The position numbers and the translations under genes are program-made. This document shows, piece by piece, positions 2,337 to 63,465 of a stretch of 64,000 nucleotides of DNA (the stretch's first letter is position 1; each line of letters begins with the position of its first letter). Under the pieces are notes generated by a model. It made no database searches, was not told the DNA's origin, and was given only the letters and a program-made list of their open reading frames with translations. The stretch is taken from the IMG/VR virus record IMGVR_UViG_3300037189_028117, positions 18,977-82,976 of that record; one strand, given 5' to 3'. The stretch is from a virus. Taxonomy: Duplodnaviria; Heunggongvirae; Uroviricota; Caudoviricetes.

Positions 2337-2729
2337 ATGAAAAAACACAACTTAGATGTATGTTGGATTCAATATTCAGAAAAAGAATTAGAAGAGAATG
2401 CTAAATTATTCAGCCAAGCAGAGTGGAATTGGATTTCGAGCCGTCAGATTATATCTCAAAGATTTATTGAAAAATATTCAGATAAAATAGATTGGGGTTG
2501 GATTTCTGAACGTCAGAATTTATCTGAAGAATTTATGGAAAAACACCAAAATAAAATTAGTTGGTGTTATATTTCTCGATATCAAAAATTATCAGAAAAG
2601 TTTATAATAAAACATATAGATAAAATTGAGATTGATTGTTTAATTAATAATAGTTATATTTCTAGAAAATTAAAAAAACAAATAAAAAAAGAATATGAAC
2701 AATTAAAGTTATTGAAAGAAATTATATGA
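2337..2729 (+). CDS. 23-aa-repeat family protein (3 repeats)
   Basis: N-cap 'MKKHNLDV..YSEKELEEN', repeats 'ISxRQ.LSE.FIEKYSDKIDW', C-cap '..LKLLKEII'; ATGA overlap with next gene. Confidence 0.7.
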   Translation: MKKHNLDVCWIQYSEKELEENAKLFSQAEWNWISSRQIISQRFIEKYSDKIDWGWISERQNLSEEFMEKHQNKISWCYISRYQKLSEKFIIKHIDKIEIDCLINNSYISRKLKKQIKKEYEQLKLLKEII

Positions 2730-3046
2730 ATGACACTGATATTATTAATAAATATGTAAACTGGACAAGATTATCATGCGATGATTCTTTATCGGAAGAA
2801 TTTATCGAAAAATATCAAGATAAACTTAATTGGATGAACATATCTCAATATCAAAAATTATCAGAAAAATTTATTGAAAAACATTCAGATATAATTGATT
2901 GGGAACTTATTTCTGAATTTCAAGATTTATCCGAAGAATTTATAAAAAAACACTTAGATAAAATTGATATTTATTATTTAATGGACAATAGAAATATTCC
3001 AGAATATATTAAAAAAGAAATTGAAAATTTAAAAGAAATTATATGA
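2726..3046 (+). CDS. 23-aa-repeat family protein (3 repeats, divergent N-cap)
   Basis: 'LSEEFIEKYQDKLNW / LSEKFIEKHSDIIDW / LSEEFIKKHLDKIDI', ends 'NLKEII', ATGA junction. Confidence 0.7.
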   Translation: MNDTDIINKYVNWTRLSCDDSLSEEFIEKYQDKLNWMNISQYQKLSEKFIEKHSDIIDWELISEFQDLSEEFIKKHLDKIDIYYLMDNRNIPEYIKKEIENLKEII

Positions 3047-3352
3047 AAAAACATAATTTATTTTTAATATACAAGAAATACCCTGAAGAAGAATTAGAGG
3101 GAAATATTAACTTGTTTAATGAACAGGATTGGAATTATATTTCTTATTATCAAGATTTATCTGAAGATTTTATAGAGAAGCATTTAGATGAAGTTGATTG
3201 GGATAATATTTCTTTTAACCAAAAGTTATCAGAATCATTTATAAAAAAACATATTAATAAAATTAACTTTACTTTATTAATGAGAAATAAAAAAATTCTT
3301 TAAATTTGAAAGATAAAATTAAAAAAGAAATTGAATTATTGAAAGAAATTAT
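3043..3352 (+). pseudogene. 23-aa-repeat family member interrupted by a frameshift in an A7 run (ORF as called ends 3303; family C-cap '...KIKKEIELLKEII' continues in -1 frame to 3352)
   Basis: N-cap 'MKKHNLFLIYKKYPEEELEGNINLF', 2 repeats, stop after 'MRNKKIL'; downstream frame encodes 'NSLNLKDKIKKEIELLKEII*' with ATGA into next gene. Confidence 0.5.
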
Positions 3353-3790
3353 ATGAATCATAATTTAGATTTAGTAAACAAAACATATTCTGAAAAAACA
3401 TTAGAAAAATACATAGAATACTTTAATGATGAAGATTGGGAAGATATTTCTTATTGTCAAGATTTATCGGAATCATTTATTGAAAAATATTTTGATAAAG
3501 TTGATTGGTATTATATTTCTGGATATCAAATATTATCTGAAAAATTCATAGAAAAACATTTAGATAAACTTGATTGGGAATACATTTATAGCAACCAAAG
3601 GTTATCAGAATCTTTCATAGAAAGAAATTTGTATAAAGTTAATTGGATTGAAATATCTTGCTATCAAAAATTATCCGAAAAATTTGTTAAAAAACACTTA
3701 AATAAATTAGACGTTAAACAACTAATGTATAATGATAAAATTTCTAATAAAATAAAAAAAGAAATCTCAAAATTAATTGAAATCATATAG
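3353..3790 (+). CDS. 23-aa-repeat family protein (4 repeats)
   Basis: 'MNHNLDL..YSEKTLEKYIEYF', four 'xYQxLSExFIEKxxDKxxW' units, ends 'LIEII' (TAG stop). Confidence 0.7.
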   Translation: MNHNLDLVNKTYSEKTLEKYIEYFNDEDWEDISYCQDLSESFIEKYFDKVDWYYISGYQILSEKFIEKHLDKLDWEYIYSNQRLSESFIERNLYKVNWIEISCYQKLSEKFVKKHLNKLDVKQLMYNDKISNKIKKEISKLIEII

Positions 3791-3996
3791 CTCAAACGAT
3801 TATCTTTAAACCAAGAAAAAACTCAAAAAAAGATCATTTAGAAGTTGACTTCCTCGACCAACGTGCTAAAACCAGAGGGTCGAAACGGAGACGGAACAAC
3901 ACCAACCCCGTTCAAAAAAACTTACATCAAACTTAACAACTTAACACTTATTATAATTTATAAACAAAAACACACAACAATAATGGAGAATAATTA

Positions 3997-7305: not shown

Positions 7306-7692
7306 ATGCTTATGGGGCATAATTTGAAGTTAAAAACACAAAAATATTCTGAAAAAGAATTGGAAAATGATATTAATTTATTTGATGAACAGGATTGGGT
7401 TTATATTTTTAAATATCAAAATCTATCTGAATGGTTTATTGAAAAACACTATGATAAAATTGATTGGAGTGAGATTTCTTGGTCCAAAAAATTATCTGAA
7501 GAATTTATTGAAAAATATTCAGATAAAGTTGATTGGTATTATATTTCTGGATATCAAAAATTATCTGAAAAATTTATAAAAAAACATATAGATAAAATTG
7601 ATATTGATTGGTTAATGGAAAATAACAAAATTTCTGAAAAATTAAAAAATAAAATTAAAAAAGAAATTAATTTATTGAAAGAAATTATATGA
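7306..7692 (+). CDS. 23-aa-repeat family protein (3 repeats)
   Basis: 'KYSEKELENDINLFDEQDW', repeats, 'INLLKEII', ATGA junction. Confidence 0.7.
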   Translation: MLMGHNLKLKTQKYSEKELENDINLFDEQDWVYIFKYQNLSEWFIEKHYDKIDWSEISWSKKLSEEFIEKYSDKVDWYYISGYQKLSEKFIKKHIDKIDIDWLMENNKISEKLKNKIKKEINLLKEII

Positions 7693-8060
7693 AAAGACAT
7701 AATTTAGATTTAGGTAGAATAAAATATTCTGAAAAAGAATTAGAAAAAAATATTAAATTATTTGATTCAATTGATTGGTATAATATTTCTAAAAATCAAA
7801 AATTATCTGAAGAATTTATAGATAAATATTCAAAGATAGTTAGCTGGAGAGATATTTCTTGTTGTCAATATTTATCAGAAGAATTTATGGAAAAACACCA
7901 AAATAAAATTAGTTGGTGTTATATTTCTTGCTGCCAAAAATTATCTGAAAAATTTATAACAAAACATATAGATAAAATTGATTTTGAAGGGTTAATGGAA
8001 AATAAATATATTTCTCATAAAATTAAAGAAGAAATTAAAATATTGAAAGAAATTATATGA
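7689..8060 (+). CDS. 23-aa-repeat family protein (3 repeats)
   Basis: 'MKRHNLDL..KYSEKELEKNIKLF', Cys-containing repeat variants 'CCQYLSEEFMEKHQNKISW', 'KILKEII'. Confidence 0.7.
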   Translation: MKRHNLDLGRIKYSEKELEKNIKLFDSIDWYNISKNQKLSEEFIDKYSKIVSWRDISCCQYLSEEFMEKHQNKISWCYISCCQKLSEKFITKHIDKIDFEGLMENKYISHKIKEEIKILKEII

Positions 8061-8356
8061 AACATAATTTAGATTTAAGTAATACAAAATATTCAGAAGA
8101 AACGTTAGAAAAATATATTAATTCATTTTCTGGATGGGATTGGTATTATATTTCTTACTGTCAAGTTTTATCTGAAAAGTTTATAGAAAAACATTCGGAT
8201 AAATTAAATTGGTATGAAATTTCTTTTTATCAAAAATTATCCGAAGAATTTATGAAAAAACATATTGATAAAATTGATATTGGTTGTTTAACGGAGAACA
8301 AAAATATTTCTGAAAAAATCAAACAAGAAATTCAAACTTTGAAAGAAATAATTTAA
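8057..8356 (+). CDS. 23-aa-repeat family protein (2 repeats)
   Basis: 'MKHNLDLSNTKYSEETLEKYINSF', 'IQTLKEII'. Confidence 0.7.
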   Translation: MKHNLDLSNTKYSEETLEKYINSFSGWDWYYISYCQVLSEKFIEKHSDKLNWYEISFYQKLSEEFMKKHIDKIDIGCLTENKNISEKIKQEIQTLKEII

Positions 8357-10575: not shown

Positions 10576-11001
10576 ATGAATCATTTAGAATATATAATAT
10601 CAAATTACGATGAAGAAATAACTAGAATGGGTAATGGTGAAGGTTTTTCTAGTGATTATAATTTGGTATTTCAAGGTTTATCTATTGAAGATTTAATATA
10701 CCTGAAAGAAAAATTAAATCCTGATCCGTCTATTTGGTCTTGGTTTATACCATATGATAAATTGGAAAAAATATTTCCCAATTGTAAAAAATGTATTATA
10801 CATTATAAAAAATTGGGTTATAGACAAAAACAAACTTGGTCAATAGAAATTTATGATTATAAAAATTTAGTTACTTTCTATGATGATCGTGAAAATTCAG
10901 ATGTGATTGATTTACAATATGCGGATATTATAAAAATATTTAATGATAATGACATAGAAAAAGATATTAAAGAATATTTCCTTTTAAAGGACATTATATG
11001 A
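10576..11001 (+). CDS. hypothetical protein ending 'LLKDII', ATGA-coupled
   Basis: shares C-terminal motif and junction with repeat family but lacks repeats. Confidence 0.45.
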   Translation: MNHLEYIISNYDEEITRMGNGEGFSSDYNLVFQGLSIEDLIYLKEKLNPDPSIWSWFIPYDKLEKIFPNCKKCIIHYKKLGYRQKQTWSIEIYDYKNLVTFYDDRENSDVIDLQYADIIKIFNDNDIEKDIKEYFLLKDII

Positions 11002-11351
11002 AATATATTGTTGTTTCAATTTTTATACCCGAATCTGGAGATAAATCTATTTATATTGCAACAAAAATTAATAGTAAAGAATTAATTGAAGAACCAATAT
11101 TTGATTGGGAAAACCTTGAATTTATAAAACAAATCTTTAATATAAAATTGATAATTAAAAATAATAAAGTAGATATAAATGAATTTATTAAAATTCATAA
11201 TTTCATCTTTTTAGAAGAAGATTTGTGCAGAATCTGTAACAAAACAAGAATATTTATTCCTTTAAAAGATTCATTTTCTTCAATTGAAGATTTTGAATCA
11301 TATGTTAAAAATGAAATTGATAAATTTGAATTATTTAAGGAAATTATATGA
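10998..11351 (+). CDS. hypothetical protein ending 'LFKEII', ATGA-coupled
   Basis: as above. Confidence 0.45.
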   Translation: MKYIVVSIFIPESGDKSIYIATKINSKELIEEPIFDWENLEFIKQIFNIKLIIKNNKVDINEFIKIHNFIFLEEDLCRICNKTRIFIPLKDSFSSIEDFESYVKNEIDKFELFKEII

Positions 11352-11938
11352 ATAAAGATAAACTATTTTTAAAAACTAAAAGGTATCCACAAAAAGAATT
11401 AGAAAAATATATTAATCTTTTTAATTCAAAAGATTGGAATAACATTTCTAAATATCAATATTTGTCAGAAAAATTTATTGAAAAACATTCAGATAAAATT
11501 AATTGGAAATTAATTTCTGCTCATCAAACTTTATCCGAAAAATTTATAGAAAAACATTACAATAAAGTTGATTGGGTTTATATTTCTCGTTGTCAAAAAT
11601 TAACAGAATTTCTTATAGAAAAACATTCAAATAAAATATCTTGGGGTTTTATTTCTTATTATCAAACTTTATCAGAATCATTTATTGAAAAATATCAGGA
11701 TAAACTTCATTGGTATTGGATTTCTTGGGCCCAAAGTTTATCTGAAGATTTTATTGAAAAACATTCAGATAAAATCTATTGGGATTGTATATCTCGATAT
11801 CAAAACTTATCTAAAGAATTTATAAAAAAACACGTTAATAAAATTAATTTTTATTATTTAAAATATAATAAAAACATTTCGAAAGAATTAAGATTAAAAA
11901 TTAAAAAAGAAATTGAATTATTGAAAGAAATTATATGA
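11348..11938 (+). CDS. 23-aa-repeat family protein (6 repeats)
   Basis: six consecutive 'SxYQxLSExFIEKHSDKIxWxxI' units; 'IELLKEII'. Confidence 0.75.
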   Translation: MNKDKLFLKTKRYPQKELEKYINLFNSKDWNNISKYQYLSEKFIEKHSDKINWKLISAHQTLSEKFIEKHYNKVDWVYISRCQKLTEFLIEKHSNKISWGFISYYQTLSESFIEKYQDKLHWYWISWAQSLSEDFIEKHSDKIYWDCISRYQNLSKEFIKKHVNKINFYYLKYNKNISKELRLKIKKEIELLKEII

Positions 11939-12144
11939 AGTCAAAATTAGTATTTTTTATAATTGCACCAGAAATTTCAATAGAATCTGCAGCTTTAGCT
12001 TTTAAAGAGAAATATTCTGAGTTCTTTAAAACTCATAATTTTTTAAAATCATTAGAGCATAACTATTTTAGTTATAACGGTGATTCTTGCGAAGAAATGA
12101 TTGAAGAATATAAGAAATATTTGTTGTTACAGGAAATAATATGA
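11935..12144 (+). CDS. hypothetical small protein ending 'LLQEII'
   Basis: ATGA-coupled small ORF. Confidence 0.4.
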   Translation: MKSKLVFFIIAPEISIESAALAFKEKYSEFFKTHNFLKSLEHNYFSYNGDSCEEMIEEYKKYLLLQEII

Positions 12145-13399: not shown

Positions 13400-13669
13400 A
13401 TGGAACAATTTTTTGGATATGTTGGTGCTCTATTTTTGGCAGTCAGTGGTATTCCGCAGGCTATAAAATCAATTATAGATGGTCATTCTAGAGGAGTTTC
13501 TCATGGAACCGTTTGGTTATGGTTTTGGGGAGAAGTTTTTATGACCATATATGTTCTATCAACATATTCAAATGATTATAAGTTGTTGGTTAATTATATA
13601 TTAAATTGTATAATTATTTCTATTGTTTTGAAATATAAATACTTTGAAAGAAAAAAGAATGACAAATAA
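13400..13669 (+). CDS. PQ-loop / SemiSWEET-like 3-TM membrane protein
   Basis: 89 aa, three hydrophobic helices, 'SGIPQAIKSI' PQ motif in TM1. Confidence 0.55.
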   Translation: MEQFFGYVGALFLAVSGIPQAIKSIIDGHSRGVSHGTVWLWFWGEVFMTIYVLSTYSNDYKLLVNYILNCIIISIVLKYKYFERKKNDK

Positions 13670-15486: not shown

Positions 15487-16155
15487 ATGCGTTTTAAACA
15501 AGAAGATTTTTTTAACAATTTGGATTCTTTTCTTGAAGAAGTAAAGGTTAAAGAGAGTAAGAAAAAGAAAAAAACCTACAAAGGTACAATTAATGGTTTT
15601 GTAGGTAATTACGATTTTCTTTCAAATTTATTTTGTAGACCACAAACATCAATAATTTATTTTAATACCGTAAATGAAAAAGGTCAAGAAATGTTGACTT
15701 CAGTTATGGAAACTGCACCAACTCTAGAGCATCTATTTCAGATGTCTAAAACAATCAATCGTGAACAACAATTAAAGATTAAAGAAGCTCATACACCACT
15801 TCAAGCAAGAAGGTTAGGTTCAAAAGTGGATTTAATTAGTAATTGGGATGAGAAAAGGGTTCCAGTAATGAAGTCATTATTGGAGGATAAATTTTCTCAA
15901 CACTTTGATTTGAGATTAAAGCTTCTTGTAACTAATGGTTTTAAACTTGTAAATGAATCTCCATTAAACGAACCATTTTGGGCAACAAAAAATGGAAATG
16001 GAGAAAATATGTTGGGAAAACTTTTAGAAGAAGTTAGGAGTAGAATAATTAGAGATAGTGGTTCTCCAAAAGAAATTTTGCAAGCTTATTTGTCAAGGGA
16101 TGGTCTTGGTTTTATTTGCGATTGGTTTGAGGAAAATAAAATGAAAATTGTATGA
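15487..16155 (+). CDS. NADAR (YbiA-like, DUF1768) domain protein
   Basis: 'GNYDFLSNLF', 'EHLFQ', 'ARRLGSK', 'LKLLVTNGFKLVNESPLNEPFWATKNGNGENMLGKLLEEVRSRI' match the NADAR signature (LSNF...EHYFQ...ARK.GR...L.TG...L.E.S..D..WG.G.G.N.LG..LM..R). Confidence 0.7.
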   Translation: MRFKQEDFFNNLDSFLEEVKVKESKKKKKTYKGTINGFVGNYDFLSNLFCRPQTSIIYFNTVNEKGQEMLTSVMETAPTLEHLFQMSKTINREQQLKIKEAHTPLQARRLGSKVDLISNWDEKRVPVMKSLLEDKFSQHFDLRLKLLVTNGFKLVNESPLNEPFWATKNGNGENMLGKLLEEVRSRIIRDSGSPKEILQAYLSRDGLGFICDWFEENKMKIV

Positions 16156-16598
16156 AACATAATTTACATTTACAATCTAAAAAATATTCTGAAAAAGAAT
16201 TGGAAGATAATATTGGTTTATTTGATGAATATGATTGGCATGCAATTTGTTATGCACAGATTTTATCTGAAAAATTTATAGAAAAACACTCAGATAAAAT
16301 TAACTGGAATATTATAAGTTATTGCCAATTTTTATCCGAAAGGTTTATAGAAAAACATTGGAATAAAGTTGATTGGAAAACCATTGCAATTAAACAAGAA
16401 TTATCCGAAAAATTTATTGAAAAACACATGCTTCATATGGATAAAATTACTTGGAATTTTATTTCTAGATACCAAAAGCTATCAGAAGAATTCATTAAAA
16501 AACATATAAATAAACTTGAATTAAATAATTTATTTAATAATAAAAAAGTTTCAGAAGAAACCAAAAATGAAATAAAATTATTAAAAGAAGTTATATGA
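16152..16598 (+). CDS. 23-aa-repeat family protein (4 repeats)
   Basis: 'MKHNLHLQSKKYSEKELEDNIGLFDEYDW', 'EIKLLKEVI'. Confidence 0.7.
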   Translation: MKHNLHLQSKKYSEKELEDNIGLFDEYDWHAICYAQILSEKFIEKHSDKINWNIISYCQFLSERFIEKHWNKVDWKTIAIKQELSEKFIEKHMLHMDKITWNFISRYQKLSEEFIKKHINKLELNNLFNNKKVSEETKNEIKLLKEVI

Positions 16599-16893
16599 AA
16601 AGATACAATTTAAATATAATTAAATATAGTGAAAATTATTTACAACATAATTTTCATTCATTTGATTCAGTTGATTGGAGTTTAATATCTTCTTATCAGG
16701 TTTTATCGGAAGAATTTATTGAAAAAAAATTCACATAAAGTTAGTTGGAATGATATTTCTGCTAGTCAAAAATTGTCAGAAAAATTTATCAAAAAACATT
16801 TTAAATTACTTGATATAGATAGTTTGCTTTTAAATAAAAATATAAGTAAGAAAACAAAAGGGAAAATTCTATTATTAAAAGAAATAATATAAT
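16598..16893 (+). pseudogene. 23-aa-repeat family member split by frameshift in an A8 run (~16733)
   Basis: 'MKRYNLNIIKYSENYLQHNFHSFDSVDWSLISSYQVLSEEFIEKKFT*' then other frame 'KFTHKVSWNDISASQKLSEKFIKKHFKLLDIDSLLLNKNISKKTKGKILLLKEII*'. Confidence 0.55.
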
Positions 16894-26069: not shown

Positions 26070-26081
26070 AAAGTAAAAACA

Positions 26082-26465
26082 ATGAAAAAGACTCAATTAA
26101 ATTTTATTAAAATGGCTATAACAAAATTTGCCAACGAAGTTTACGGTAACACTTTATCTGATGGCGATACAGATTTAGATATCGCTGATGAAATAGTTTC
26201 AAGATTATCCAAATATTTTGATAAATCAAAAGTACCAGAATTATCAGATTCTGATTATCAAATATATTTACAGACGAGAACTTGTGATATGGAGGATTCC
26301 TATTTCTTAGGAATAGAAGAAAACAATAATTATTCTGAAAAAGAAAGAAAATTAAAAGAGAAAGAATTAAAAAGCTTAAATACATTTATAAATAAATTTT
26401 TCCCTAAAAAGCCTGAAAGGAAAATACTTTCCGCACCAAAAGCAAAGAAAGTTTTGAAAAAATGA
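26082..26465 (+). CDS. hypothetical protein (127 aa)
   Basis: ORF, ATGA to next. Confidence 0.4.
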   Translation: MKKTQLNFIKMAITKFANEVYGNTLSDGDTDLDIADEIVSRLSKYFDKSKVPELSDSDYQIYLQTRTCDMEDSYFLGIEENNNYSEKERKLKEKELKSLNTFINKFFPKKPERKILSAPKAKKVLKK

Positions 26466-26728
26466 AATTTTCAGATTTTGTTGAAGATGGCAAAGAACAT
26501 TTTATTTTATATAAATTTGATGGAATTGGATATGATTTTTTACACTCCTATTATAAATTAAGTAATATAATCATTAAGACCGGTTCTTACATGAATATTG
26601 AAGAGGCTTATATAGATTTGCCATATAATGATGGGGAATTGAAAGATTATAAAAAAATATTCTTTAAATCAAAGAAAGAACTAATTGACGAGTTTAATAA
26701 TTTAAAAATATTAAAAGAAATTATATGA
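26462..26728 (+). CDS. hypothetical protein ending 'LKILKEII'
   Basis: shared junction/C-tail, no repeats. Confidence 0.4.
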   Translation: MKFSDFVEDGKEHFILYKFDGIGYDFLHSYYKLSNIIIKTGSYMNIEEAYIDLPYNDGELKDYKKIFFKSKKELIDEFNNLKILKEII

Positions 26729-27258
26729 AAAAGCAAAAAGTTAAAAAAATTTTATCAAAAGAGCAAGAAGAGAATATATTAAATATTCTCTCAAATAATT
26801 TTTCAAATGGAGATCATTTTGATTTCTCTTTTAATTTTAAAAATTACAATTATTCAGAAGAGTTTATAGAAAAAGCTATTCCTTATTTAGACTCGAAAAC
26901 ACTAGGAAGTATTATTACTAATGATAATTGCAAGTATATATTTTTGTTATCTGAAAATTCTATTAAAAAAATTTTAAAATACAAATATGTTTGTTTACAG
27001 TTTTCATACTATGCAAATAGAATATTTAAAAAAAGACTCTTCTCTGAAGATTTTTTGCAAAGTTATATAAACAAATTTACTCGTAAGAATAGTTATTATT
27101 TTTCAAATAATATTTCTTTAATTTCTATATATCAAAATATGTCTGAAGATTTTATTATTAAAAATATAAAAATTTTAAATGTTGAATTCTTGATAAGAAA
27201 CAAAAATATAACAAAAGATGTAAAAAATAAAATTATTTCATTAAGAGAAATTATATGA
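26725..27258 (+). CDS. degenerate repeat-family-like protein (177 aa)
   Basis: 'NMSEDFIIKNIKILNVEFLIRNKNITKDVKNKIISLREII'. Confidence 0.5.
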   Translation: MKKQKVKKILSKEQEENILNILSNNFSNGDHFDFSFNFKNYNYSEEFIEKAIPYLDSKTLGSIITNDNCKYIFLLSENSIKKILKYKYVCLQFSYYANRIFKKRLFSEDFLQSYINKFTRKNSYYFSNNISLISIYQNMSEDFIIKNIKILNVEFLIRNKNITKDVKNKIISLREII

Positions 27259-27776
27259 AAAAACATAATTTGGATTTAAAATATAATAGATATTCAGAGC
27301 AAGAATTAAAAGATAAAATTCACTTATTTGATTTAAATGATTGGGATAATGTTTCTGAGCATCAAAATCTATCTAAAATTTTTATCAGAAAACATTCAGA
27401 CAAACTTTGTTGGGGTTGCATTTCTTACTTTCAAGAATTATCAGAAAAACTTATAGAAAAATATTCGGAAAAAGTTAATTGGCATTCGATTTCTTCTGAA
27501 CAAAAATTATCAGAAGAATTTATTGAAAAATACTCAGATAAAGTTGATTGGATTAATATTTCTTATTGTCAAAAATTATCTGAAAAATTTATAGATAAAT
27601 ACTCAAATAAACTTGATTGGTATTCTATTTCTGCTAGTCAAAAATTATCAGAAGAGTTTATAAAAAAATATATAAATAAAATTAATATTGGTTTTTTAAT
27701 GGAAAACCCAAACATTTCTGAAAAATTAAAAAAGAAAATAAAAAAAGAAATTAAATTATTAAAAGAAATCATATGA
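27255..27776 (+). CDS. 23-aa-repeat family protein (5 repeats)
   Basis: canonical caps and repeats. Confidence 0.75.
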   Translation: MKKHNLDLKYNRYSEQELKDKIHLFDLNDWDNVSEHQNLSKIFIRKHSDKLCWGCISYFQELSEKLIEKYSEKVNWHSISSEQKLSEEFIEKYSDKVDWINISYCQKLSEKFIDKYSNKLDWYSISASQKLSEEFIKKYINKINIGFLMENPNISEKLKKKIKKEIKLLKEII

Positions 27777-28156
27777 AAAAACATAATTTAGATTTATTAA
27801 GTAAAATATATTCCGAAGAAGAATTGGAAGAAAACATTATGTTATTTAAAAAACTTGATTGGCATACAATTTGTTATGCGCAGGTTTTGTCTGAAAATTT
27901 TATTGAAAAATACTCTGATAAAATTTATTGGGAATTGATTTCTGAATGTCAAAATTTATCCGAAGAATTTATTGAAAAACATTCAGATAAAGTTGACTGG
28001 GATTATATTGCTATAGAGCAAGTTTTATCAGAAAAATTTATAAGAAAACATATAGATAAAATTGATATTAATTATTTAATGGAAAACTATCATATAGATG
28101 AGAATGTAAAATCTAAAATTAAATTAGAAGTCGATTTATTAAAAGAAATTATATAA
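27773..28156 (+). CDS. 23-aa-repeat family protein (3 repeats)
   Basis: canonical caps, 'VDLLKEII'. Confidence 0.7.
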   Translation: MKKHNLDLLSKIYSEEELEENIMLFKKLDWHTICYAQVLSENFIEKYSDKIYWELISECQNLSEEFIEKHSDKVDWDYIAIEQVLSEKFIRKHIDKIDINYLMENYHIDENVKSKIKLEVDLLKEII

Positions 28157-28418: not shown

Positions 28419-29312
28419 ATGGCATCAGTAATAGATAGGGTTTTTAGATTTAATTTAGCTTCTCCTCCACCTTGGTTGAGAACAAATGTTCATTACGAAG
28501 TTGTTATGGGATCTACCGCTTATGGTGTATCTTCTGATAATTCTGATATGGACATTTATGGATTTTGTATTCCTCCTAAAGAATATATATTCCCTCATTT
28601 ATCCGGTTACATCAATGGTTTTGGTAAAAAACCTCCAAATTTTGAAGTTTGGACAGAACATCATATAAAAGACAAAGATAAAAACAAAGAATACGATTTT
28701 TCTATTTATGGAATTGTTAAATTTTTTCAATTGTGTATGGACAATAACCCAAACATGATTGATTCTCTTTTTGTTCCACAAAACTGCGTTCTTCATCAAA
28801 CCAGAGTCGCTACAATGATTAGAGATAATAGAAAAATATTTCTTCATAAGGGATGCTATCATAAATTTAAAGGTTACTCATTTAGTCAATTACATAAAGC
28901 TGAAATTAAAAATCCACAAGAAGGTTCAAAAAGATATGAAGATATAAAAAATCATGGTTATGATTCAAAATTCTTGTACCACGTTGTTAGACTTTTAGAT
29001 GAATGTGAGCAAATTCTTACATTAGGTGACCTTGATTTACAGAGGTCGAAAGAGTATCTTAAGGCCATCCGTAGAGGAGAAGTTTCCGAAGAAGATGTAA
29101 AATCTTATTTTAACGAAAAAGAAAAATATTTAAACAAATGTTACGAAGAATCAAAGCTTCCTTATTCTCCAGATGAGGATAAAATAAAAACTCTTCTTTT
29201 GAATTGCTTGGAGGACCATTATGGTTCTTTGGAAAAAGCTTATTTTGATCCTGGCAAAGCTGAAAAGGCTTTGATGGAAATAAAGCAAATAATTGAAAGA
29301 AATGTAAAATGA
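28419..29312 (+). CDS. Pol-beta-superfamily nucleotidyltransferase-fold protein
   Basis: 'GSTAYGVSSDNSDMDIYGF' = GS-x9-DxD NTase motif. Confidence 0.55.
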   Translation: MASVIDRVFRFNLASPPPWLRTNVHYEVVMGSTAYGVSSDNSDMDIYGFCIPPKEYIFPHLSGYINGFGKKPPNFEVWTEHHIKDKDKNKEYDFSIYGIVKFFQLCMDNNPNMIDSLFVPQNCVLHQTRVATMIRDNRKIFLHKGCYHKFKGYSFSQLHKAEIKNPQEGSKRYEDIKNHGYDSKFLYHVVRLLDECEQILTLGDLDLQRSKEYLKAIRRGEVSEEDVKSYFNEKEKYLNKCYEESKLPYSPDEDKIKTLLLNCLEDHYGSLEKAYFDPGKAEKALMEIKQIIERNVK

Positions 29313-29677
29313 ATTTAATGAACAAAAAATATTCTGAAAAAGAATTGGAAGTGAATATTGATTCATTTAATGATATTGATTGGATGAACGTTTGTGAATT
29401 TCAGAATTTATCTGAAGAATTTATGGAAAAATATTATAATAAGTTGAATTGGCTTTATGTTTCTAAATGTCAAAAATTATCTGAAAATTTTATAGAAAAA
29501 TATTCAGATGAATTATATTGGGATTTGATTTCTCAATATCAAAAATTATCAGAGTTTTTTATTAAAAAACATATAAATAAAATTAGTTTTTATGATCTTA
29601 TGTTAAATAAAAACATTTCAAAACATTTGAAAGAAGAAATAAAAGAAGAATTAGAGTTGTTGAAAGAAGTTATATGA
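29309..29677 (+). CDS. 23-aa-repeat family protein (3 repeats)
   Basis: 'KKYSEKELEVNIDSFNDIDW', 'LELLKEVI'. Confidence 0.7.
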   Translation: MNLMNKKYSEKELEVNIDSFNDIDWMNVCEFQNLSEEFMEKYYNKLNWLYVSKCQKLSENFIEKYSDELYWDLISQYQKLSEFFIKKHINKISFYDLMLNKNISKHLKEEIKEELELLKEVI

Positions 29678-29973
29678 AACATAATTTAGATTTAGTGTAT
29701 AAAAAATATACCGAAGAAGAATTAGAAAATAACATTCATTTATTTGAATTCAATGATTTTCGTAGAATTTATACATATCAAAAATTATCAGAAAAGTTTA
29801 TAGAAAAACATTCAACTAATGTTGATTGGGGATATATTTCTCATTATCAATATTTATCTGAAGAATTTATAAAAAAACATATAAATAAAATTAGTATTTA
29901 TTATTTAATGATGAACAAAAAAATCTCTAAGAACATCAAACAAGAAATAAAAACATTAAAGTATATAATATGA
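29674..29973 (+). CDS. 23-aa-repeat family protein (2 repeats)
   Basis: 'MKHNLDLVYKKYTEEELENNIHLF', 'IKTLKYII'. Confidence 0.7.
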   Translation: MKHNLDLVYKKYTEEELENNIHLFEFNDFRRIYTYQKLSEKFIEKHSTNVDWGYISHYQYLSEEFIKKHINKISIYYLMMNKKISKNIKQEIKTLKYII

Positions 29974-30269
29974 AAAAACATAATTTAGATTTATTTAAGA
30001 AATGTTCTGAAAAAGAATTAGAAAAAAACATTGATTTATTTAATCAAATTGAGTGGAATATTATTTCTTATTCTCAAAAATTATCAGAGTCATTTATAGA
30101 AAAATATTCACATAAACTTGATTGGGGATGGATTTCAATTTATCAAGAATTATCTGAAAAATTTATAATGAAACATCTTGATAAGATTAGTGTTTTTTGG
30201 TTAATGGAAAATAAAAAAATCTCTAATAATATTAAAAAAGAAATAAAAACATTAAAAGATATAATATAA
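29970..30269 (+). CDS. 23-aa-repeat family protein (2 repeats)
   Basis: 'MKKHNLDLFKKCSEKELEKNIDLF', 'IKTLKDII'. Confidence 0.7.
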   Translation: MKKHNLDLFKKCSEKELEKNIDLFNQIEWNIISYSQKLSESFIEKYSHKLDWGWISIYQELSEKFIMKHLDKISVFWLMENKKISNNIKKEIKTLKDII

Positions 30270-30373: not shown

Positions 30374-30433
30374 GCATTACCTTTTATTGAAGAAATTTGT
30401 CAAATTGTTGGTTACGATAGGAGCGAAAGTTAA

Positions 30434-32998: not shown

Positions 32999-33001
32999 GA
33001 T

Positions 33002-33382
33002 ATGAAACATAATTTAGATTTAATAAATAATAATTCTTCCGAAGAAGAATTAGAAAAATATATACACTTATTTGAATCGCTTGATTGGATATATATTTCT
33101 GCGTATCAAAAATTATCTGAAGAATTTATAGAAAATCATTCAGATGATGTTCGTTGGGATAAAATTTCTAAATACCAAATTTTATCAGAAAATTTTATTG
33201 AAAAATATTCAGATAAGCTTAGGTGGGATTATATTTCTTATTATCAAAAATTATCCGAAGAATTTATAAAAAAACATATCAATAAAATTGATGTTGAAGA
33301 GTTAATAGAAAACAATAAAATTTCTAAAAAGTTAAAAGAAAAAATTGAAAAAGAAATTAATTTATTGAAAGAAATTATATGA
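33002..33382 (+). CDS. 23-aa-repeat family protein (3 repeats)
   Basis: canonical caps. Confidence 0.7.
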   Translation: MKHNLDLINNNSSEEELEKYIHLFESLDWIYISAYQKLSEEFIENHSDDVRWDKISKYQILSENFIEKYSDKLRWDYISYYQKLSEEFIKKHINKIDVEELIENNKISKKLKEKIEKEINLLKEII

Positions 33383-33815
33383 AACATAATTTAAGTCTAA
33401 GTGATAAAAAATATTCGGAAAAAATTTTAGAAAAAAATATTAAATTATTTACGGAATGGGATTGGTTTTTCATTTCAAGATATCAAAATTTATCAGAACA
33501 ATTTACAGAAAAAAATGTAGATAAACTTCATTGGGGTTGCATTTCTTGCTTTAAAAAATTATCTGAATGTTTTTTATAAAATATTCAGATAAATTAAATT
33601 GGAACTTGATTTCTAGATATCAAAAGTTATCAGAAAATTTTATAAAAAAACATTCAGATAAAGTTAATTGGTATGAAATTTCTTATTATCAAAAATTATC
33701 CGGTAAATTTATAAAAAGAAATGTTAATAAAATTAATTTTACTTTGCTTATGATGAATAAAAACATTTCAGATGGAATAAAAAATGAAATACTGACTTTG
33801 AAAGAAATTATATGA
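33379..33815 (+). pseudogene. 23-aa-repeat family member split by frameshift in a T6 run (~33573); called as two ORFs 33379-33579 and 33567-33815
   Basis: '...CFKKLSECFL*' then other frame 'FIKYSDKLNWNLISRYQKLSE...'; one extra T would restore 'LSECFFIKYSDKLNW'. Confidence 0.55.
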
Positions 33816-34057
33816 AAAAACATAATTTAAATTTGGCCAGGAATAAATATTCAGAAAAAGAATTAGAAGATAATATTAACTTTTTTGATCTAATAGATTG
33901 GGGAGATATTGCTTATCATCAAGAATTATCCGAAGAATTTATAAAAAAACATATTAATAAAATTAGTATTTTTTTATTAATGAGAAACAAGAAAATTTCT
34001 AAAAAATTAAAAGAAAAAATTGAAAAAGAAATTAATTTATTGAAAGAAATTATATAA
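33812..34057 (+). CDS. 23-aa-repeat family protein (1 repeat)
   Basis: caps with single repeat. Confidence 0.65.
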   Translation: MKKHNLNLARNKYSEKELEDNINFFDLIDWGDIAYHQELSEEFIKKHINKISIFLLMRNKKISKKLKEKIEKEINLLKEII

Positions 34058-34350
34058 TGCTAAATGAATATATTTTAATTTACATACCAAATAAAAACAA
34101 TGAATTTTTTGATTTTTTTATTTCTTATGATAAAAATTATCAAAATAATGATGATCTTGGAAAATATTTCAAAAAATTTGAACCAAATACAATAGATATT
34201 GAATTGTTTTTAACAGAAATTGATAATGATTATTTATTTAAATTAAATAATAAAGTTAAAGAAGATGGTTTTTATTGTTATTTGAAATATAAGAAAAAAA
34301 CAATAAAACAAGATATAAAAAATTTGTTAACGATTAAGGATATTATATAA
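34057..34350 (+). CDS. hypothetical protein ending 'LLTIKDII'
   Basis: shared C-tail only. Confidence 0.4.
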   Translation: MLNEYILIYIPNKNNEFFDFFISYDKNYQNNDDLGKYFKKFEPNTIDIELFLTEIDNDYLFKLNNKVKEDGFYCYLKYKKKTIKQDIKNLLTIKDII

Positions 34351-34361
34351 AGGAAAATCGA

Positions 34362-35411: not shown

Positions 35412-35442
35412 AATTTTCACATCACTTGATATATATAAAAGT

Positions 35443-52724: not shown

Positions 52725-53234
52725 ATGACAAAAGAACAAAATACAAATAATCAAATTTACAATAGTCCTACTGGTGATAGTTGGGATAAGGCAGCAGAAG
52801 ATTATTGGAATCTTATAAGCACTACCTCTACTGTTATAAATACTACCTCTACTTTATCAAACACAAATTCTACTGCGCCAATATGGGTCTATCCACCACA
52901 AACTCCAACCTATGTACCTATGAGTATAGGTACATCAGCAACTTCTGCTTATGTTCACCAAGCTCAATCTAAAATAAATTTAAATAATTGCTTCTTATTA
53001 AGAAAAGTTGGTGCTGGAAAATGGAAATGTTTTCAAGCTATACATTATACTGGTTATGATGTTCATTTTTTAGATGATGGAAAGATTAGCGTTTCTGGTC
53101 TTAATAAAAAAAATATAGTAGTCAATAAAGAAACAATTAATAAAGCAAAAGAAAAAGGAATAGAAATAATAGATTCTTGGCCTGAAGAATTATTGACTGA
53201 GGATGAAGAAAATATTAAGGATATTATAGAATAA
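52725..53234 (+). CDS. hypothetical Thr/Ser-rich protein
   Basis: ORF. Confidence 0.4.
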   Translation: MTKEQNTNNQIYNSPTGDSWDKAAEDYWNLISTTSTVINTTSTLSNTNSTAPIWVYPPQTPTYVPMSIGTSATSAYVHQAQSKINLNNCFLLRKVGAGKWKCFQAIHYTGYDVHFLDDGKISVSGLNKKNIVVNKETINKAKEKGIEIIDSWPEELLTEDEENIKDIIE

Positions 53235-57040: not shown

Positions 57041-57385
57041 ATGAAAAACATACCATGTAGAATAAAAACACATTCATCAAATAAGAGTGAAAACTTCTTT
57101 GATTTTTATTCTTTTGTTTATGATATTTCTTTTGTCAGAGAAAACATTGATAAAATGAAACCTTATGATTGGTATATGATAAGTCACACTCACGAGTTAG
57201 ATATGGATTTCATTCAAACTTATGAAGACAAACTAGTTCTTGATGCTTTGTGTAGATTTCAAAATTTAAGCGAAGAATTTATAAGAAAAAATATATCATT
57301 AATAAATATTAATGATCTTAAAGTAAATAAGAATATTGATGAAAAAATAATTGAAGAAATTAAATTATTAAAAGATATTATATAG
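57041..57385 (+). CDS. 23-aa-repeat family protein (1 repeat, divergent N-term)
   Basis: 'CRFQNLSEEFIRKNISLININDLKVNKNIDEKIIEEIKLLKDII'. Confidence 0.6.
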   Translation: MKNIPCRIKTHSSNKSENFFDFYSFVYDISFVRENIDKMKPYDWYMISHTHELDMDFIQTYEDKLVLDALCRFQNLSEEFIRKNISLININDLKVNKNIDEKIIEEIKLLKDII

Positions 57386-60700: not shown

Positions 60701-61306
60701 GAATATTTAGCTGGTGATAGAATTGCTGCGTATAATGGTTTCTTTATGAGGGGTTCTATGGCATTTTCTCATTTAGAGAAATTATTACCAAGACCACCAG
60801 AGAGTTTCTCGGAATCCGATTTAAAAAAGTATAATAAAAAAGTAAATCTATTACAAGGTGAAGTTAAGTCAATTTTTGAATTTAAAGTAAAGAAAGAAGA
60901 TTCAAAAATGAGAGGTCAATTAATGGCCAAGATAGCCATAGAAGATATTTATGGTTCTCAAATTGTTTTGACTTGTTTTCCGGATGGATGGGAAAATTTA
61001 AAAAAGAAATGTCTTAAAATGTCCGGTGGAAAGCAAAAATTTGATGTAGGTTGCGGTATTTACTTTAATGGCAATCTTAGTTGGTATAATGGGGAATTGG
61101 GTATAACTTATGAGGATGTGGTAAAACTTTGTTCTCCACCTCAATTGCCTGCGGATTTAAAGGCAAAGAAAATAAATATGAGAGATAAATCTTTAAAAGA
61201 AGAAACGGTTGTTTTTGATGAAGATGATCGAAATATTCTTCTGGAAGATATTGAACAAGAATTAATTGAAATGGGAAACTCTGGGTTTGAAGATGAAGAT
61301 CTTTAA
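57707..61306 (+). CDS. dnaE: DNA polymerase III alpha subunit (DnaE-type, PHP domain)
   Basis: PHP 'YVSLHNHTTFSISDS', 'AVTDHGSL', polymerase core colinear with DnaE, 1199 aa. Confidence 0.9.
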   Translation: MSESYQKIGYVSLHNHTTFSISDSLISPKDLIKRTAELGQKAVAVTDHGSLAGLWDAFQEAKKTKVKLIPGIEMYFMDDLNSDTERMRHLILLSKNEVGYRNLLLLTAESFDNKKIVHKKVVPRATWETLEKYKEGLICSTACANGILGSLINEKKYDEAFKTAERLKSIFGDDFAIELQAHALKRKATSYSGEIDQVSTNKRLREIAEKLDVKCIVTTNAHYVHPEQHEAHDVLLAIASGQPINSGQRLKYENVPLHIRDEEDIFTKLSRITYDKEFSKKCIENSKYFADKCEFPEWIDPKYSNPSGKELPHFPVKDQEDYSEFLEWNKENQIEGKQEDHMYLRYRCEIGLKKKVPEEKHQIYKERLESELYVLEHHDFSSYMLIVMDFLEYARKNNMSVGVGRGSAGGVLTCYLVDIHISDPIKYGLIFERFHNIEKASFPDLDCDVASESKEAVENYLIKKYGKDNVANVSNISSLTPKVYMRSIARTFVYGGDRKTAVSIGTNLADAVPADLKEAPIDDIISLPLISEYVKPKEEGGAGYTEVSKYAKDLSKQYAAWSTHAAGLVIGKRPLKGLVPLRKDKDNNIALEFEKERAEANGLVKMDILGLSTLDVIDETRRLIKSLGKEVPKPISEFDYDVYDKKTYDLISEGRTLCVFQLGTSAGTIELCKRIKPKSIEDIAVINSLARPSARDFRDTFIKTRDGELEIKLLHPLLANALNPTYGFPIYEESLMFITKDVANFSLLDSDRCRKITKAKGKDKSKLEALKKDFIDGAAKNGVSEEKAKEIFAFIEGYSAYGFNKSHAIFYSYLGFYTAYLKANYPLEYLVSCLKHEVNSNAKIAEDNIAKIKEEIRAMKVKIVPPDINTSDTSYKIIDSNTLMTGLDAIKFMGKDAMPEILSKRPFSSFEDFLTRIDGSKVRAPAIQALAAAGCLDSLGVSRKMIFLYASDYKKKLGAFLKKKEKSPNKYTEFNYPWPEEPDWTIPEKCALETFYIGEYLAGDRIAAYNGFFMRGSMAFSHLEKLLPRPPESFSESDLKKYNKKVNLLQGEVKSIFEFKVKKEDSKMRGQLMAKIAIEDIYGSQIVLTCFPDGWENLKKKCLKMSGGKQKFDVGCGIYFNGNLSWYNGELGITYEDVVKLCSPPQLPADLKAKKINMRDKSLKEETVVFDEDDRNILLEDIEQELIEMGNSGFEDEDL

Positions 61307-61763
61307 AAAACTTATAAAATATATACGTAAATCTAAATTAGATTTAATTGATAAAAAATACTCCGAAGAAGAGTTAGAAAAACATGCTGATTCATTTAAT
61401 GAATTGGATTGGTATTATATTTCTAAATATCAAAGTTTATCAGAATCATTTATAAAAAAATATTCACATAAATTTTGGTGGGGTGATATTTCTGCTTATC
61501 AAAGTTTATCCGAAAAATTTATTGAAAAATACTCAGATAAAGTTAATTGGACTTACATATCTAGATATCAAGAGTTATCTGAAACATTTGTAGAAAAATA
61601 TTTAGATAAAGTTAATTGGATTCACATTTCTTATTCTCAAAAATTATCCGAGCCATTTATAAAAAAATATTTTAATAAAATTGATGTTGATTGTTTAATG
61701 AATAATAAATATATCTCAAAAGAATTCAAAAATGAAATAAAAACATTAAAAGAAATAATATGA
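61293..61763 (+). CDS. 23-aa-repeat family protein (4 repeats)
   Basis: start overlaps dnaE 3' end; caps and repeats canonical. Confidence 0.7.
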   Translation: MKIFKKLIKYIRKSKLDLIDKKYSEEELEKHADSFNELDWYYISKYQSLSESFIKKYSHKFWWGDISAYQSLSEKFIEKYSDKVNWTYISRYQELSETFVEKYLDKVNWIHISYSQKLSEPFIKKYFNKIDVDCLMNNKYISKEFKNEIKTLKEII

Positions 61764-62062
61764 AAAAACATAATTTGCATTTGATGTATAAAAAGTATTC
61801 AGAAAAAGATTTGGAATATAATTGTCATTTATTTAATAATGATGATTGGTATCGTATTTCTTATTATCAAAATTTATCTGAAAAATTCATAGAAAAATAT
61901 TTAGATAAATTAGATTGGAAATGGATATCTAGATTTCAAAAACTATCAGAAGAATTTATCAAAAAACACGTAAATAAAATTGATATTGATTTTTTAATGA
62001 AAAACAATGATATTTCAGAAAAAACAAAAAAAGAAATAGAAACATTAAAAGAGATTATATGA
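61760..62062 (+). CDS. 23-aa-repeat family protein (2 repeats)
   Basis: canonical. Confidence 0.7.
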   Translation: MKKHNLHLMYKKYSEKDLEYNCHLFNNDDWYRISYYQNLSEKFIEKYLDKLDWKWISRFQKLSEEFIKKHVNKIDIDFLMKNNDISEKTKKEIETLKEII

Positions 62063-62499
62063 ATGAACAGAATGTAGACTTACATAATAAAAGATATTCT
62101 GAAGAAGAATTAGAAAATAATATTAATTTATTTGATCTTGATCATTGGTATATTTTATGTTATAGACAAAAACTATCCGAAAACTTTATAGAAAAATATT
62201 CAGATAAAATTCATTGGGAGGAAATTTCTTGGGCCCAAGATTTGTCAGAGTCATTTATTGAAAAATATTCAAATAAAGTTAAATGGTTTGAAATTAGCAT
62301 ATATCAGGAATTATCAGAACAATTTATAGAAAAACATTCAGATAAAGTTAATTGGAATGAAATTTCAAGATGCCAAAAGCTATCTGAAGGATTTATTAAA
62401 AAACATATAAATAAAATAAAAATATCTTCTTTAATAGATAATGAAAATATTTCAGAAAAAACTAAAGAAGAAATAAAAACATTGAAAGAAATTATATGA
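62059..62499 (+). CDS. 23-aa-repeat family protein (4 repeats)
   Basis: canonical. Confidence 0.7.
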   Translation: MNEQNVDLHNKRYSEEELENNINLFDLDHWYILCYRQKLSENFIEKYSDKIHWEEISWAQDLSESFIEKYSNKVKWFEISIYQELSEQFIEKHSDKVNWNEISRCQKLSEGFIKKHINKIKISSLIDNENISEKTKEEIKTLKEII

Positions 62500-62789
62500 A
62501 ATATTTTGTAATCATATTATTTAATGAGACTTGGGATTATGATATATCACTGGCAACAAAAAATCATAGCGACATAAATTGCGATTTTGTGTCAGAAGAA
62601 AACGTAGATGCTTTAACGTTTGAATATTTCGAAGCAAAAAATTTATATCATTATTGGAAGGATTGTGATGTAGAAAAAATCGTTCTTGATGTTTATTTGG
62701 TTGAAGCAAATAAAGATAATAAAGTAAAACAAATATTAAAAATAAAAGAAGAAATTGAAGAAATAAAAACGTTGAAAGAAATTATATGA
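62496..62789 (+). CDS. hypothetical protein ending 'IKTLKEII' (non-repeat cassette inside family cluster)
   Basis: junction and tail shared, body unrelated. Confidence 0.45.
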   Translation: MKYFVIILFNETWDYDISLATKNHSDINCDFVSEENVDALTFEYFEAKNLYHYWKDCDVEKIVLDVYLVEANKDNKVKQILKIKEEIEEIKTLKEII

Positions 62790-63100
62790 AAAAACATAAT
62801 TTAGATTTAATACGAAAAAAATATTCGGAAAAAGAATTGGAAGAATATATTAAATTCTTTAGTGATTATGATTTGGAGGTAATTTCTTATACTCAAAATT
62901 TATCCGAAGAATTCATTGAGAAATATTCAGATAAAGTTGATTGGTATTATATTTCTTCTCGACAAAATTTATCTGAAGAATTTATAAGAAAACATATAAA
63001 TAAAATTCATATTAGTTGGTTGATGAATAATAATTTTATTTCTAGAAAATTAAAAAATAAAATTAAAAAAGAAATAAAAACATTGAAAGAAATTATATGA
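62786..63100 (+). CDS. 23-aa-repeat family protein (2 repeats)
   Basis: canonical. Confidence 0.7.
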   Translation: MKKHNLDLIRKKYSEKELEEYIKFFSDYDLEVISYTQNLSEEFIEKYSDKVDWYYISSRQNLSEEFIRKHINKIHISWLMNNNFISRKLKNKIKKEIKTLKEII

Positions 63101-63465
63101 AACATAACTTAGATTTAAAATTTGAAATATATTCTGAAAAAGAATTAGAAAATAATATGCATTTATTTGATTTATATGATTGGGACTGCATTTGTAGGTA
63201 TCAGATGTTATCTGAAAGATTTATAGAAAAATATTCAGATGAAGTTAGTTGGGGTTTAATTTGTTTTTATCAAAATTTATCTGAAAAATTTATAGAAAAA
63301 TATTCAGATAAAGTTGATTGGTATTATATTTCTTATTCTCAAAAGTTATCTGAAAATTTTATAGAGAAACACATAAATGAAATTAATATTAATAAGTTAA
63401 TGCAAAACAAAAATATTTCAAAACAAATAATAGAAGAACTAAAAACTTTAAAAGATATAATATAG
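63097..63465 (+). CDS. 23-aa-repeat family protein (3 repeats)
   Basis: canonical, 'LKTLKDII' TAG stop. Confidence 0.7.
   Translation: MKHNLDLKFEIYSEKELENNMHLFDLYDWDCICRYQMLSERFIEKYSDEVSWGLICFYQNLSEKFIEKYSDKVDWYYISYSQKLSENFIEKHINEININKLMQNKNISKQIIEELKTLKDII

Follow-up and report, generated by a model that had tools for sequence, protein, structure and literature searches.

Why do small phage genes with otherwise dissimilar products end in the same few amino acids, and why is the DNA that joins them to the next gene almost invariant? The question is raised by a 64,000-nucleotide stretch of a Caudoviricetes virus (positions 18,977 to 82,976 of the IMG/VR record IMGVR_UViG_3300037189_028117; hereafter the window), in which neighbouring small open reading frames (ORFs) meet at a junction of about 38 bp that encodes a C-terminal LKEII and its stop codon in one frame and the start of the next protein, MKKHNLDL, in another. 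We favour the view that this junction is a dual-coding, translationally coupled gene boundary in tandem arrays of small accessory genes, a reading that the sequence makes probable rather than certain. Most of the pattern is ordinary tandem-paralogue biology, and the pattern that is left over is moderately unusual.

The junction as the meeting point of two protein caps

When up to three mismatches are allowed, the 38-bp junction, TTGAAAGAAATTATATGAAAAAACATAATTTAGATTTA, is found six times in the whole window, always on the + strand (at 3029, 7675, 27241, 27759, 33798 and 62772), and not once in 100 dinucleotide-preserving shuffles, which bears out the preliminary description of family genes joined by a near-invariant junction. 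The exact copy at 62772..62809 (+) reads LKEII-stop in one frame and MKKHNLDL in the -1 frame, and the other five differ from it by one to three mismatches. A shorter string, AARGAWATTATATGA, which comprises the 15-nt tail plus ATGA and specifies K-E/D-I-I-stop, has 25 matches with at most one mismatch, again all on the + strand, against 0.46 expected, and an LKEII-like C-terminal end is present on 31 ORFs of the window. The conserved C-terminal segment exceeds LKEII and takes the form of an amphipathic helix of 9–17 residues. The G+C content of the window is 22–30% except for one segment of 38.6%, and its + strand carries almost all genes. The ATGA overlap is general in this genome and not specific to the family: it occurs at 77 of 187 gene ends overall, and 55 of 81 tail ORFs end in ATGA.

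Which genes are joined in this way? By sequence, most carriers of the junction and tail are paralogues of the phage "tryptophan repeat gene family" (TRGF; PHROG 3532), of which the window holds about 23 intact and three broken ORFs. Members consist of an N-cap, MK(K)HNLDLxxKKYSEKELE, one to six copies of a 23-amino-acid repeat, W..IS..Q.LSE.FIEKxxDKv, and a C-cap, KHINKIDxxxLMxNxxISxxxKxxIxxEIxxLKEII. The repeat has a 69-nt period (Tandem Repeats Finder, 5.6 copies in 11348-11938), and 74 Q.LSE.FI.K cores are spread over 35 genes. Three members match the profile phrog_3532 with E-values of 1.4e-46, 5.7e-58 and 2e-18, while tblastn aligns the family at 52.8% identity (2e-30) with gp045 of Bacillus phage vB_BpuM-BpSp (BpSp), annotated as 'tryptophan repeat gene family protein', and finds the family dozens of times over in Listeria phage LPJP1 and in Bacillus phage G. 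In the paper on phage G, the tryptophan repeat family is entered as being of unknown function (PMC12484599).

As in other large DNA viruses and jumbo phages, the family here combines the 23-amino-acid W...IS..Q.LSE.FIEK repeat with many, often tandem, paralogues and a C-terminal capping helix of the same spacing. It differs in that the copies are short (one to six repeats), are fused by ATGA without a spacer, and share their ...LKEII ending with non-family ORFs. AlphaFold models a 104-amino-acid member (14 homologues of the same length) as an all-alpha solenoid with a predicted local distance difference test (pLDDT) score of 93.6, the last element being a predicted 17-residue helix, residues 87-103, that includes the tail; a Foldseek search of this model against the PDB returned no significant match. 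Family proteins elsewhere end in ...EINKLRHV or ...IDKLKSI (LPJP1) and in ...ELETLYKLYVV (BpSp), that is, in an amphipathic helix with equal spacing, and their genes are set apart by spacers of 10–150 nt with AGGAGG/AAAGGA sites of their own and no ATGA. Since these copies end in the same-spaced helix, the C-cap helix is ancestral to the family, with the exact ...KEII ending and the ATGA fusion specific to the present lineage. The near-invariant string of about 38 bp then arises because the end of the C-cap and the start of the next N-cap abut via the ATA-TGA / ATG-A overlap: the junction is the conserved C-cap helix end (...EIxxLKEII) of one copy meeting the N-cap (MKKHNLDL) of the next.

Other uses of the reading frames at the junction were also considered. 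Recoding of TGA as a sense codon was rejected, as the large conserved genes are all intact under translation table 11 and many of them end in TGA, and no slippery site that could support a programmed frameshift fusion of adjacent copies was found ahead of the stop. Followed past the TGA, for example at 62786-62806, the upstream frame reads (K)-N-I-I and then meets an in-frame TAG (ATA TGA AAA AAC ATA ATT TAG), so that a read-through product would again end in ...II, 4–5 codons later. On the minus strand, antisense ORFs of 44–48 amino acids span family junctions (7554-7700, 27132-27266, 27638-27784, 33244-33387, 33689-33823 and 61637-61780), each beginning at the complement of the MKKHN His codon (CAT); these most likely arise as a side effect of conservation in the K/E/I-rich sense sequence.

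Codon choice and a putative ribosome-binding site in the upstream gene

Is the junction DNA more conserved than its peptides require? Almost nowhere: the synonymous sites match background codon usage, which largely counts against the recombination module that had been proposed. Synonymous-codon homozygosity is 0.43–0.46 for Ile at -12, -8 and -2, against 0.45 expected from genome codon usage, and 0.28 against 0.29 for the N-cap Ser, with the repeat core likewise at expectation. Mean pairwise nucleotide identity amounts to 78–86% in the tail, 79% in the repeat core and 86% in the FIKKHINKI box. Junction invariance is thus accounted for by amino-acid conservation together with strongly AT-biased codon usage.

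Three codons depart from this rule. The final Ile is ATA in 34 of 35 family tails and in 46 of 48 coupled tails; Leu-5 is TTG in 18 of 35 family tails, compared to 24% of the TTG+TTA background and 4 of 74 cases in the repeat core; and Lys-4 is AAG in 9 of 15 non-family tails, compared to a background of 18%. To judge from their positions, the deviating wobble choices are those that build the start codon and a GAAAG/AAGGA motif at -12...-8. The ribosome-binding site (RBS) motif of this genome was derived from 113 starts without a preceding tail, where G peaks at -12...-8 and the 5-mers AAAGG (9x), AAGGA (7x) and GAAAG (6x) are enriched. In the tails, G is found at -8 in 82%, at -12 in 44% and at -9 in 22% of cases, giving ttG AAA G aa or aAG GAw, followed by an AT spacer and ATG. 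Hence, a motif resembling a Shine-Dalgarno (SD) sequence or RBS is present in the 3′ end of the upstream genes, the G positions and the TTG and AAG wobble bias being in agreement; this embedded motif is weak relative to canonical GGAGG and is read from the genome's own starts. The string TTGAAAGAAAT also precedes the start at 29309, where it lies inside an RlaP-family gene and in a different reading frame. Windows of 60 nt across junctions have a mean minimum free energy of -3.2 kcal/mol, as opposed to -7.0 for internal coding windows, and a G+C content of 15%.

These properties are the predicted signature of an ATGA translational-coupling site with the RBS inside the upstream gene. Of the three roles originally suggested for the junction, that of a termination-reinitiation signal is therefore the best supported, with the ATGA overlap, the ATA codon, the wobble G and the minimal predicted RNA structure all pointing to it at the level of sequence statistics. 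Coupling by termination-reinitiation at ATGA pairs generally involves an SD motif within the gene that lies upstream (Huber et al. 2019, PMC6728339). The present junctions resemble that system in their 4-nt overlap, in the purine-rich motif located 8–12 nt upstream within the upstream ORF and in their low RNA structure. They differ from it in that the constraint surfaces as a recurrent C-terminal peptide over dozens of genes in one genome, and in that coupling is here a prediction.

How might such a boundary operate? A ribosome terminating at the UGA would re-initiate at the overlapping AUG, or a new 30S subunit would bind there, and the embedded RBS, lying in an AT-only window free of structure, would help in either case. 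The final five codons would then be doubly constrained, because they have to provide the hydrophobic helix end (φ-K-E/D-I-I) as well as the RBS, the spacer and the start of the next gene. As a further consequence of the overlap, residue 2 of the next protein has an ANN codon, which is part of the reason for the MK or MN starts.

Small genes outside the repeat family

Tandem paralogy accounts for the repeat family, so what of the small genes that carry the tail and are not part of it? All eight such ORFs named in the preliminary description exist, and their ends read LLKDII (10576), LFKEII (10998), LLQEII (11935), TTKDII (14153), LLKDIL (17426), ILKEII (26462), TIKDII (34057) and TLKEII (62496). 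Stripped of their tails, the eight bodies resemble neither the repeat family nor one another at a significant level in BLAST, Pfam or PHROG comparisons, and all eight fall outside the TRGF by test, with only 26462 being marginal (E~0.04) against the C-terminal halves of the family; that the same tail sits on unrelated small ORFs is thereby upheld. Further variants in the window are LEDIIK (13659-14156), LENII (17265-17420), DIIEIIC (17746-18159) and KDIIE (52725-53234).

The tail is in fact spread more widely than first described. We extended the count to four contigs, namely the window and three loci on other contigs of the same phage (samples JGI 3300032307 and ENA ERZ28594783); a contig of 171,650 bp is on record as encoding exactly the product of 62786-63100. 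The other contigs contain long runs of repeat-less ORFs of about 80–130 amino acids that end in ...ILLLKEII, ...ITLREII, ...LTIKDII, ...LLMEII or ...SLKDIIS. Altogether, [ED]II(x) forms the C-terminus of 42 of the 108 small non-repeat ORFs, where 0.27 would be expected (P~4e-80), and of none of the 36 large proteins. Except for three pairs, the tail-less non-family ORFs are BLAST singletons, and alignment z-scores of the bodies are no higher for pairs of tail ORFs than for pairs of a tail and a tail-less ORF. Searches of databases with 5.8 and 1.8 billion proteins show two of the ORFs, 10998-11351 and 34057-34350, to be ORFans, the only real hits being the query itself and one strain orthologue at 93%. 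An iterative hidden Markov model search that started from a pair of non-family paralogues gathered no further members. The orthologue of 34057-34350 in strain L018 (2533-2826) differs at 8 nt, 7 of which change an amino acid and none of which fall in the last 12 codons, which suggests a body evolving fast or neutrally.

Two routes may have brought the tail to these genes. Recombination over short homologies may have transferred it from neighbouring genes or made it uniform with theirs, as in 62496-62789, whose tail is of the family type (EIKTLKEII) and identical to that of its neighbour at 32 of 33 positions; alternatively, the ORFs may be kept in an operon-like array in which selection preserves the expression of the following gene. 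Such routes account for only part of the sharing of one tail among many unrelated small genes. In non-family tails, hydrophobic residues occupy positions -15, -11, -8 and -5, with E at -12, while in the family they occupy -16, -12, -8 and -5, so that the two registers agree from -8 to -1.

Several observations weigh against a coupled boundary as the whole explanation. Because the non-family tails have a register of their own, their simple capture from neighbouring family genes can account only for ORFs such as 62496. In tails, the penultimate codon begins with A in 94% and has T as its second base in 100% (wobble T 66, A 30), whereas the same two positions at independent starts are A in only 55% and T in only 43%; being far more fixed than at those starts, the two bases in the tails are not explained by the need for an RBS. 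ATGA junctions without the tail end in varied K/E/I/V residues. At least 11 ORFs keep the tail without a coupled downstream start, for instance those ending at 8356, 28156, 30269, 57385 and 3790. The wobble-G bias is not significantly different between coupled (40/62) and terminal (9/19) tails (p = 0.19), the terminal class being partly contaminated by gene-calling gaps. Moreover, 18 of 46 non-family tails (39%) have one extra residue after II, which shifts KEII by 3 nt from the ATG and leaves the peptide unchanged. The part of the pattern that coupling leaves over, then, is Ile-Ile plus a helix register of about 12–15 residues on more than 40 unrelated ORFans, array ends included. With codon positions 1–2 fixed and the wobble free, the tail is seen to be under selection as a peptide, and RBS constraints sharpen the ending but do not create the ...II.

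Might the tail, then, be a portable C-terminal peptide tag? The φ-K-(E/D)-I-I helix would in this case be read by one common partner and impose a shared fate, and its overlap with the RBS would be secondary. That partner could be an unfoldase/ClpP by which the proteins are degraded at set times, a host hub or the repeat proteins; a route of capsid packaging or ejection is also conceivable. We consider this explanation unlikely, although the confinement of the ending to small non-repeat ORFs at the exclusion of large proteins, the unrelatedness of the tail-bearing bodies by every sequence test, the codon periodicity and the retention of the tail at array ends all fit it, and genes for a bona fide Clp protease (8.6e-58) and for AAA ATPases lie in the vicinity. 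On the other side, the family tail belongs to a structural capping helix that is modelled with confidence and is older than this lineage, the extra residue after II in 39% of non-family tails argues against a carboxylate-anchored motif, and nothing ties the tail to the ClpP encoded at 19328. Tags of the ssrA type, which deliver proteins to ClpXP, are likewise short C-terminal motifs with a non-polar end, and a Clp protease is present in the same genome; the motif discussed here differs in being helical, in tolerating an extra terminal residue and in containing no LAA-like sequence. To our knowledge, it has no similarity to known degrons such as LAA. If the tag were real, the helix would be carried by about half of this phage's small accessory proteins, among them many ORFans and no fewer than two classes without structural relationship, as a common signal whose codons double as the next RBS, a scenario that we would grant only a low probability.

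Common descent offers a different answer, and one that we find decidedly improbable. The tail ORFs would derive from one hyper-divergent superfamily or share an ancestral 3′ module, their bodies having diverged past recognition or been replaced, so that the helix is the slowest-evolving remnant with no special shared function. In keeping with this, the non-family register extends over about 15 residues (E in 50% at -12, I in 47% at -11, and hydrophobic residues in 70–98% at -15, -11, -8 and -5), many non-family ORFs begin with a similar M-x-x-Y-φ-φ-φ strand, and in the few pairs of paralogues that can be detected, similarity is greatest around the tail. The AlphaFold model of 34057-34350, unusable at a pLDDT of 48, tentatively outlines a beta-alpha-beta arrangement with a terminal helix. 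However, the body z-scores among tail ORFs do not exceed those against non-tail ORFs, Zn-ribbon-like Cys pairs are found in several bodies and not in others, and the synonymous sites in the tails bear no trace of recent common ancestry. Descent also leaves unexplained why a structurally different repeat family shares the last five residues only in this lineage.

Recombination and the arrangement of the arrays

The junction had further been likened to the promoter early stem-loop (PeSL) cassettes of T4-type phages, as a dedicated linker whose DNA is selected for the swapping, insertion and deletion of cassettes between phages, and this we regard as very unlikely. PeSL cassettes of T4-type hyperplastic regions are intergenic and comprise a strong sigma-70 promoter and a terminator stem-loop (PMC2839356, PMC4122927). 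Like them (Arbiol et al. 2010; Comeau et al. 2014), the sequences studied here are short repeats flanking small ORFan genes in variable regions, and one of two indels between strains ends in the repeats. Unlike them, the junction is coding on both sides, without a stem-loop, promoter enrichment or conserved synonymous sites, so that the analogy fails. The junction does read TTGAAA-N17-CATAAT, a 10/12 match to a sigma-70 promoter, but such promoter-like sites number 57 against 55 +/- 6.7 expected (26–35 kb) and the start codon lies within the spacer, for which reasons a promoter was rejected; the putative transcript would begin inside the next gene, downstream of its ATG. No terminator-like sites were found at the junctions.

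Between strains, arrays gain or lose whole units by recombination, both in the tails and in other conserved boxes. The family arrays sit in regions that, by comparison with two syntenic relatives (L008 and L009), are variable: the order of the core genes ClpP, FtsK-like, His-phosphatase, RlaP, metallophosphatase, topoisomerase I and AAA is kept in both, with no family arrays between them, and in L008 RlaP directly adjoins the metallophosphatase gene. Between these core genes, the interval 25378-35443 contains three family arrays together with YqiJ-like, SPFH/band-7 and alanine-dehydrogenase genes that are missing in the closest relative. In strain L016 (JGI 3300043444), a further complete family gene stands between the macro-domain gene (window 63468) and the orthologue of 63097-63465, and the indel has both its end-points in tails. 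Strain L018 (ENA ERZ27249305), in turn, has one unit fewer in the array 33002-34057, a 227-nt indel whose break-points fall in the FIKKHINKI box, about 90 nt upstream of the tail, and it also displays mosaic patches of paralogue-like sequence within otherwise identical genes. Thus, of the two indels, one conforms to exchange at junctions and the other does not.

The cassette 62496-62789 is surrounded by a direct repeat, GAAGAAATAAAAAC(A/G)TTGAAAGAAATTATATGAAA, of 36 nt with one mismatch (left copy 62463..62502, right copy 62753-62792; +), and in a related strain a deoxynucleoside monophosphate (dNMP) kinase extends 5 residues past its Pfam profile to end in ...VYEII-ATGA, directly followed by a family gene. 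Together with the L016 end-points, the repeats around 62496 give the idea of a portable recombination module some weak support, which is offset by L018, by synonymous sites at expectation and by a junction identity no higher than that of other family boxes; moreover, the stretch common to non-family tails is only about 15 nt long and 80% identical, which is not enough to sustain homologous exchange efficiently. On this evidence, the tails take part in unequal recombination as one of several conserved boxes and can probably be captured by other genes, and the junction does not look like a dedicated recombination element. Changes in the copy number of an array would come from ordinary unequal recombination, for which any conserved box of the family, the tail among them, could serve.

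No close genome was found by megablast, blastn or tblastn in phage records, and scans of viral, metagenome and genome collections for the junction DNA pattern gave nothing or chance single hits without family context, one of them in an ABC-transporter operon ending GEII-ATGA. With DNA polymerase III alpha as an anchor, viral contigs yielded only relatives that were 25–28% identical.

Within the window, all on the + strand, the family is organised as follows. Array A (2337..3790) contains four TRGF genes (2337-2729, 2726-3046, 3043-3356 and 3353-3790), the last ending LIEII-TAG; its gene 3043-3356 is broken by a 1-nt T deletion near 3296, the usual ending ...NLKDKIKKEIELLKEII running on in another frame. 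Array B (7306..8356) consists of three ATGA-joined TRGF genes (7306-7692, 7689-8060 and 8057-8356), of which the last ends LKEII-TAA with no same-strand gene downstream. The only clear minus-strand gene of the window, 8353-8880, encodes a ferritin/Dps-like protein of 175 amino acids and converges on this last gene with a 4-nt overlap. Between the two arrays, the segment 3997-6836 has a G+C content of 38.6% as opposed to about 26% elsewhere and encodes an AAA/MoxR-like ATPase (437 amino acids) and a DUF2201 metallopeptidase/VWA-like protein (483 amino acids), a gene pair that was probably acquired horizontally.

In array C (10576..12144), all four genes are ATGA-coupled: the non-repeat ORFs 10576-11001 (LLKDII), 10998-11351 (LFKEII, an ORFan) and 11935-12144 (LLQEII), and the TRGF gene 11348-11938 with its 5.6 repeats of 69 nt. 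Next come the ATGA-coupled non-repeat ORFs 13659-14156 (...LEDIIK) and 14153-14491 (...TTKDII), the TRGF gene 16152-16598 (LKEVI) with a truncated TRGF remnant, 16595-16738, behind it (16152..16738), and the non-repeat tail ORFs 17265-17420 (...TLENII-TAA), 17426-17749 (...LLKDIL) and 17746-18159 (...DIIEIIC). Array G (26462..28156), wholly missing from L008 and L009, comprises the non-repeat ORF 26462-26728 (ILKEII), the divergent TRGF gene 26725-27258 (SLREII) and the TRGF genes 27255-27776 and 27773-28156. Array H (29309..30269) has three TRGF genes (29309-29677, 29674-29973 and 29970-30269), and the first of these overlaps by ATGA the RlaP-family gene 28419-29312, which ends ...IERNVK.

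Array I (33002..34350) is made up of the TRGF genes 33002-33382, 33379-33815 and 33812-34057 and the non-repeat ORF 34057-34350 (TIKDII-TAA). A strong hairpin (32960-32993; 14-bp stem, 7 GC pairs) followed by a T-run lies between an SPFH-domain gene and this array, whose first gene begins 8 nt past the hairpin with no recognisable RBS. Relative to strain L018, where the gene is intact (150 amino acids), 33379-33815 has a frameshifting 1-nt deletion; along with 3043-3356 and 16595-16738, it could be a pseudogene, an assembly error or the product of a programmed shift. Further along are a tail-variant ORF of 169 amino acids at 52725..53234, ending ...ENIKDIIE-TAA with one extra residue, and an isolated divergent TRGF gene at 57041..57385, which ends LKDII-TAG and has no overlapping start. 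Array L (within 61293..63465) contains the TRGF genes 61293-61763, 61760-62062, 62059-62499, 62786-63100 and 63097-63465 and the non-repeat cassette 62496-62789 (TLKEII), with tails that are locally homogenised (EIKTLKEII). On another contig (L014, 8598-10041, minus strand), an IS605-type OrfB/TnpB gene overlaps the 3′ end of a family gene that ends tail-less (...DQKYHFLMQ); an intact version of that gene (P0134, ending ...STIMDII) is found on a different contig, and this is probably an insertion of the element into a family gene.

What do these findings mean for the phage and for those who annotate its relatives? A near-invariant DNA string can arise fully from conserved protein caps, AT-biased codons and an overlapping start signal, and annotators should not label such strings as mobile or regulatory elements. 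The tail, in turn, offers an inexpensive way of spotting accessory-gene islands in this phage lineage. Should the pattern that is left over turn out to have a function, it would disclose a new way in which large phages organise, co-regulate or co-target fast-evolving early/accessory proteins, with one peptide as a handle on dozens of proteins of unknown function. Were the tail to prove a tag, the genome would be written in a 'tag plus coupling' grammar for plug-in gene cassettes.

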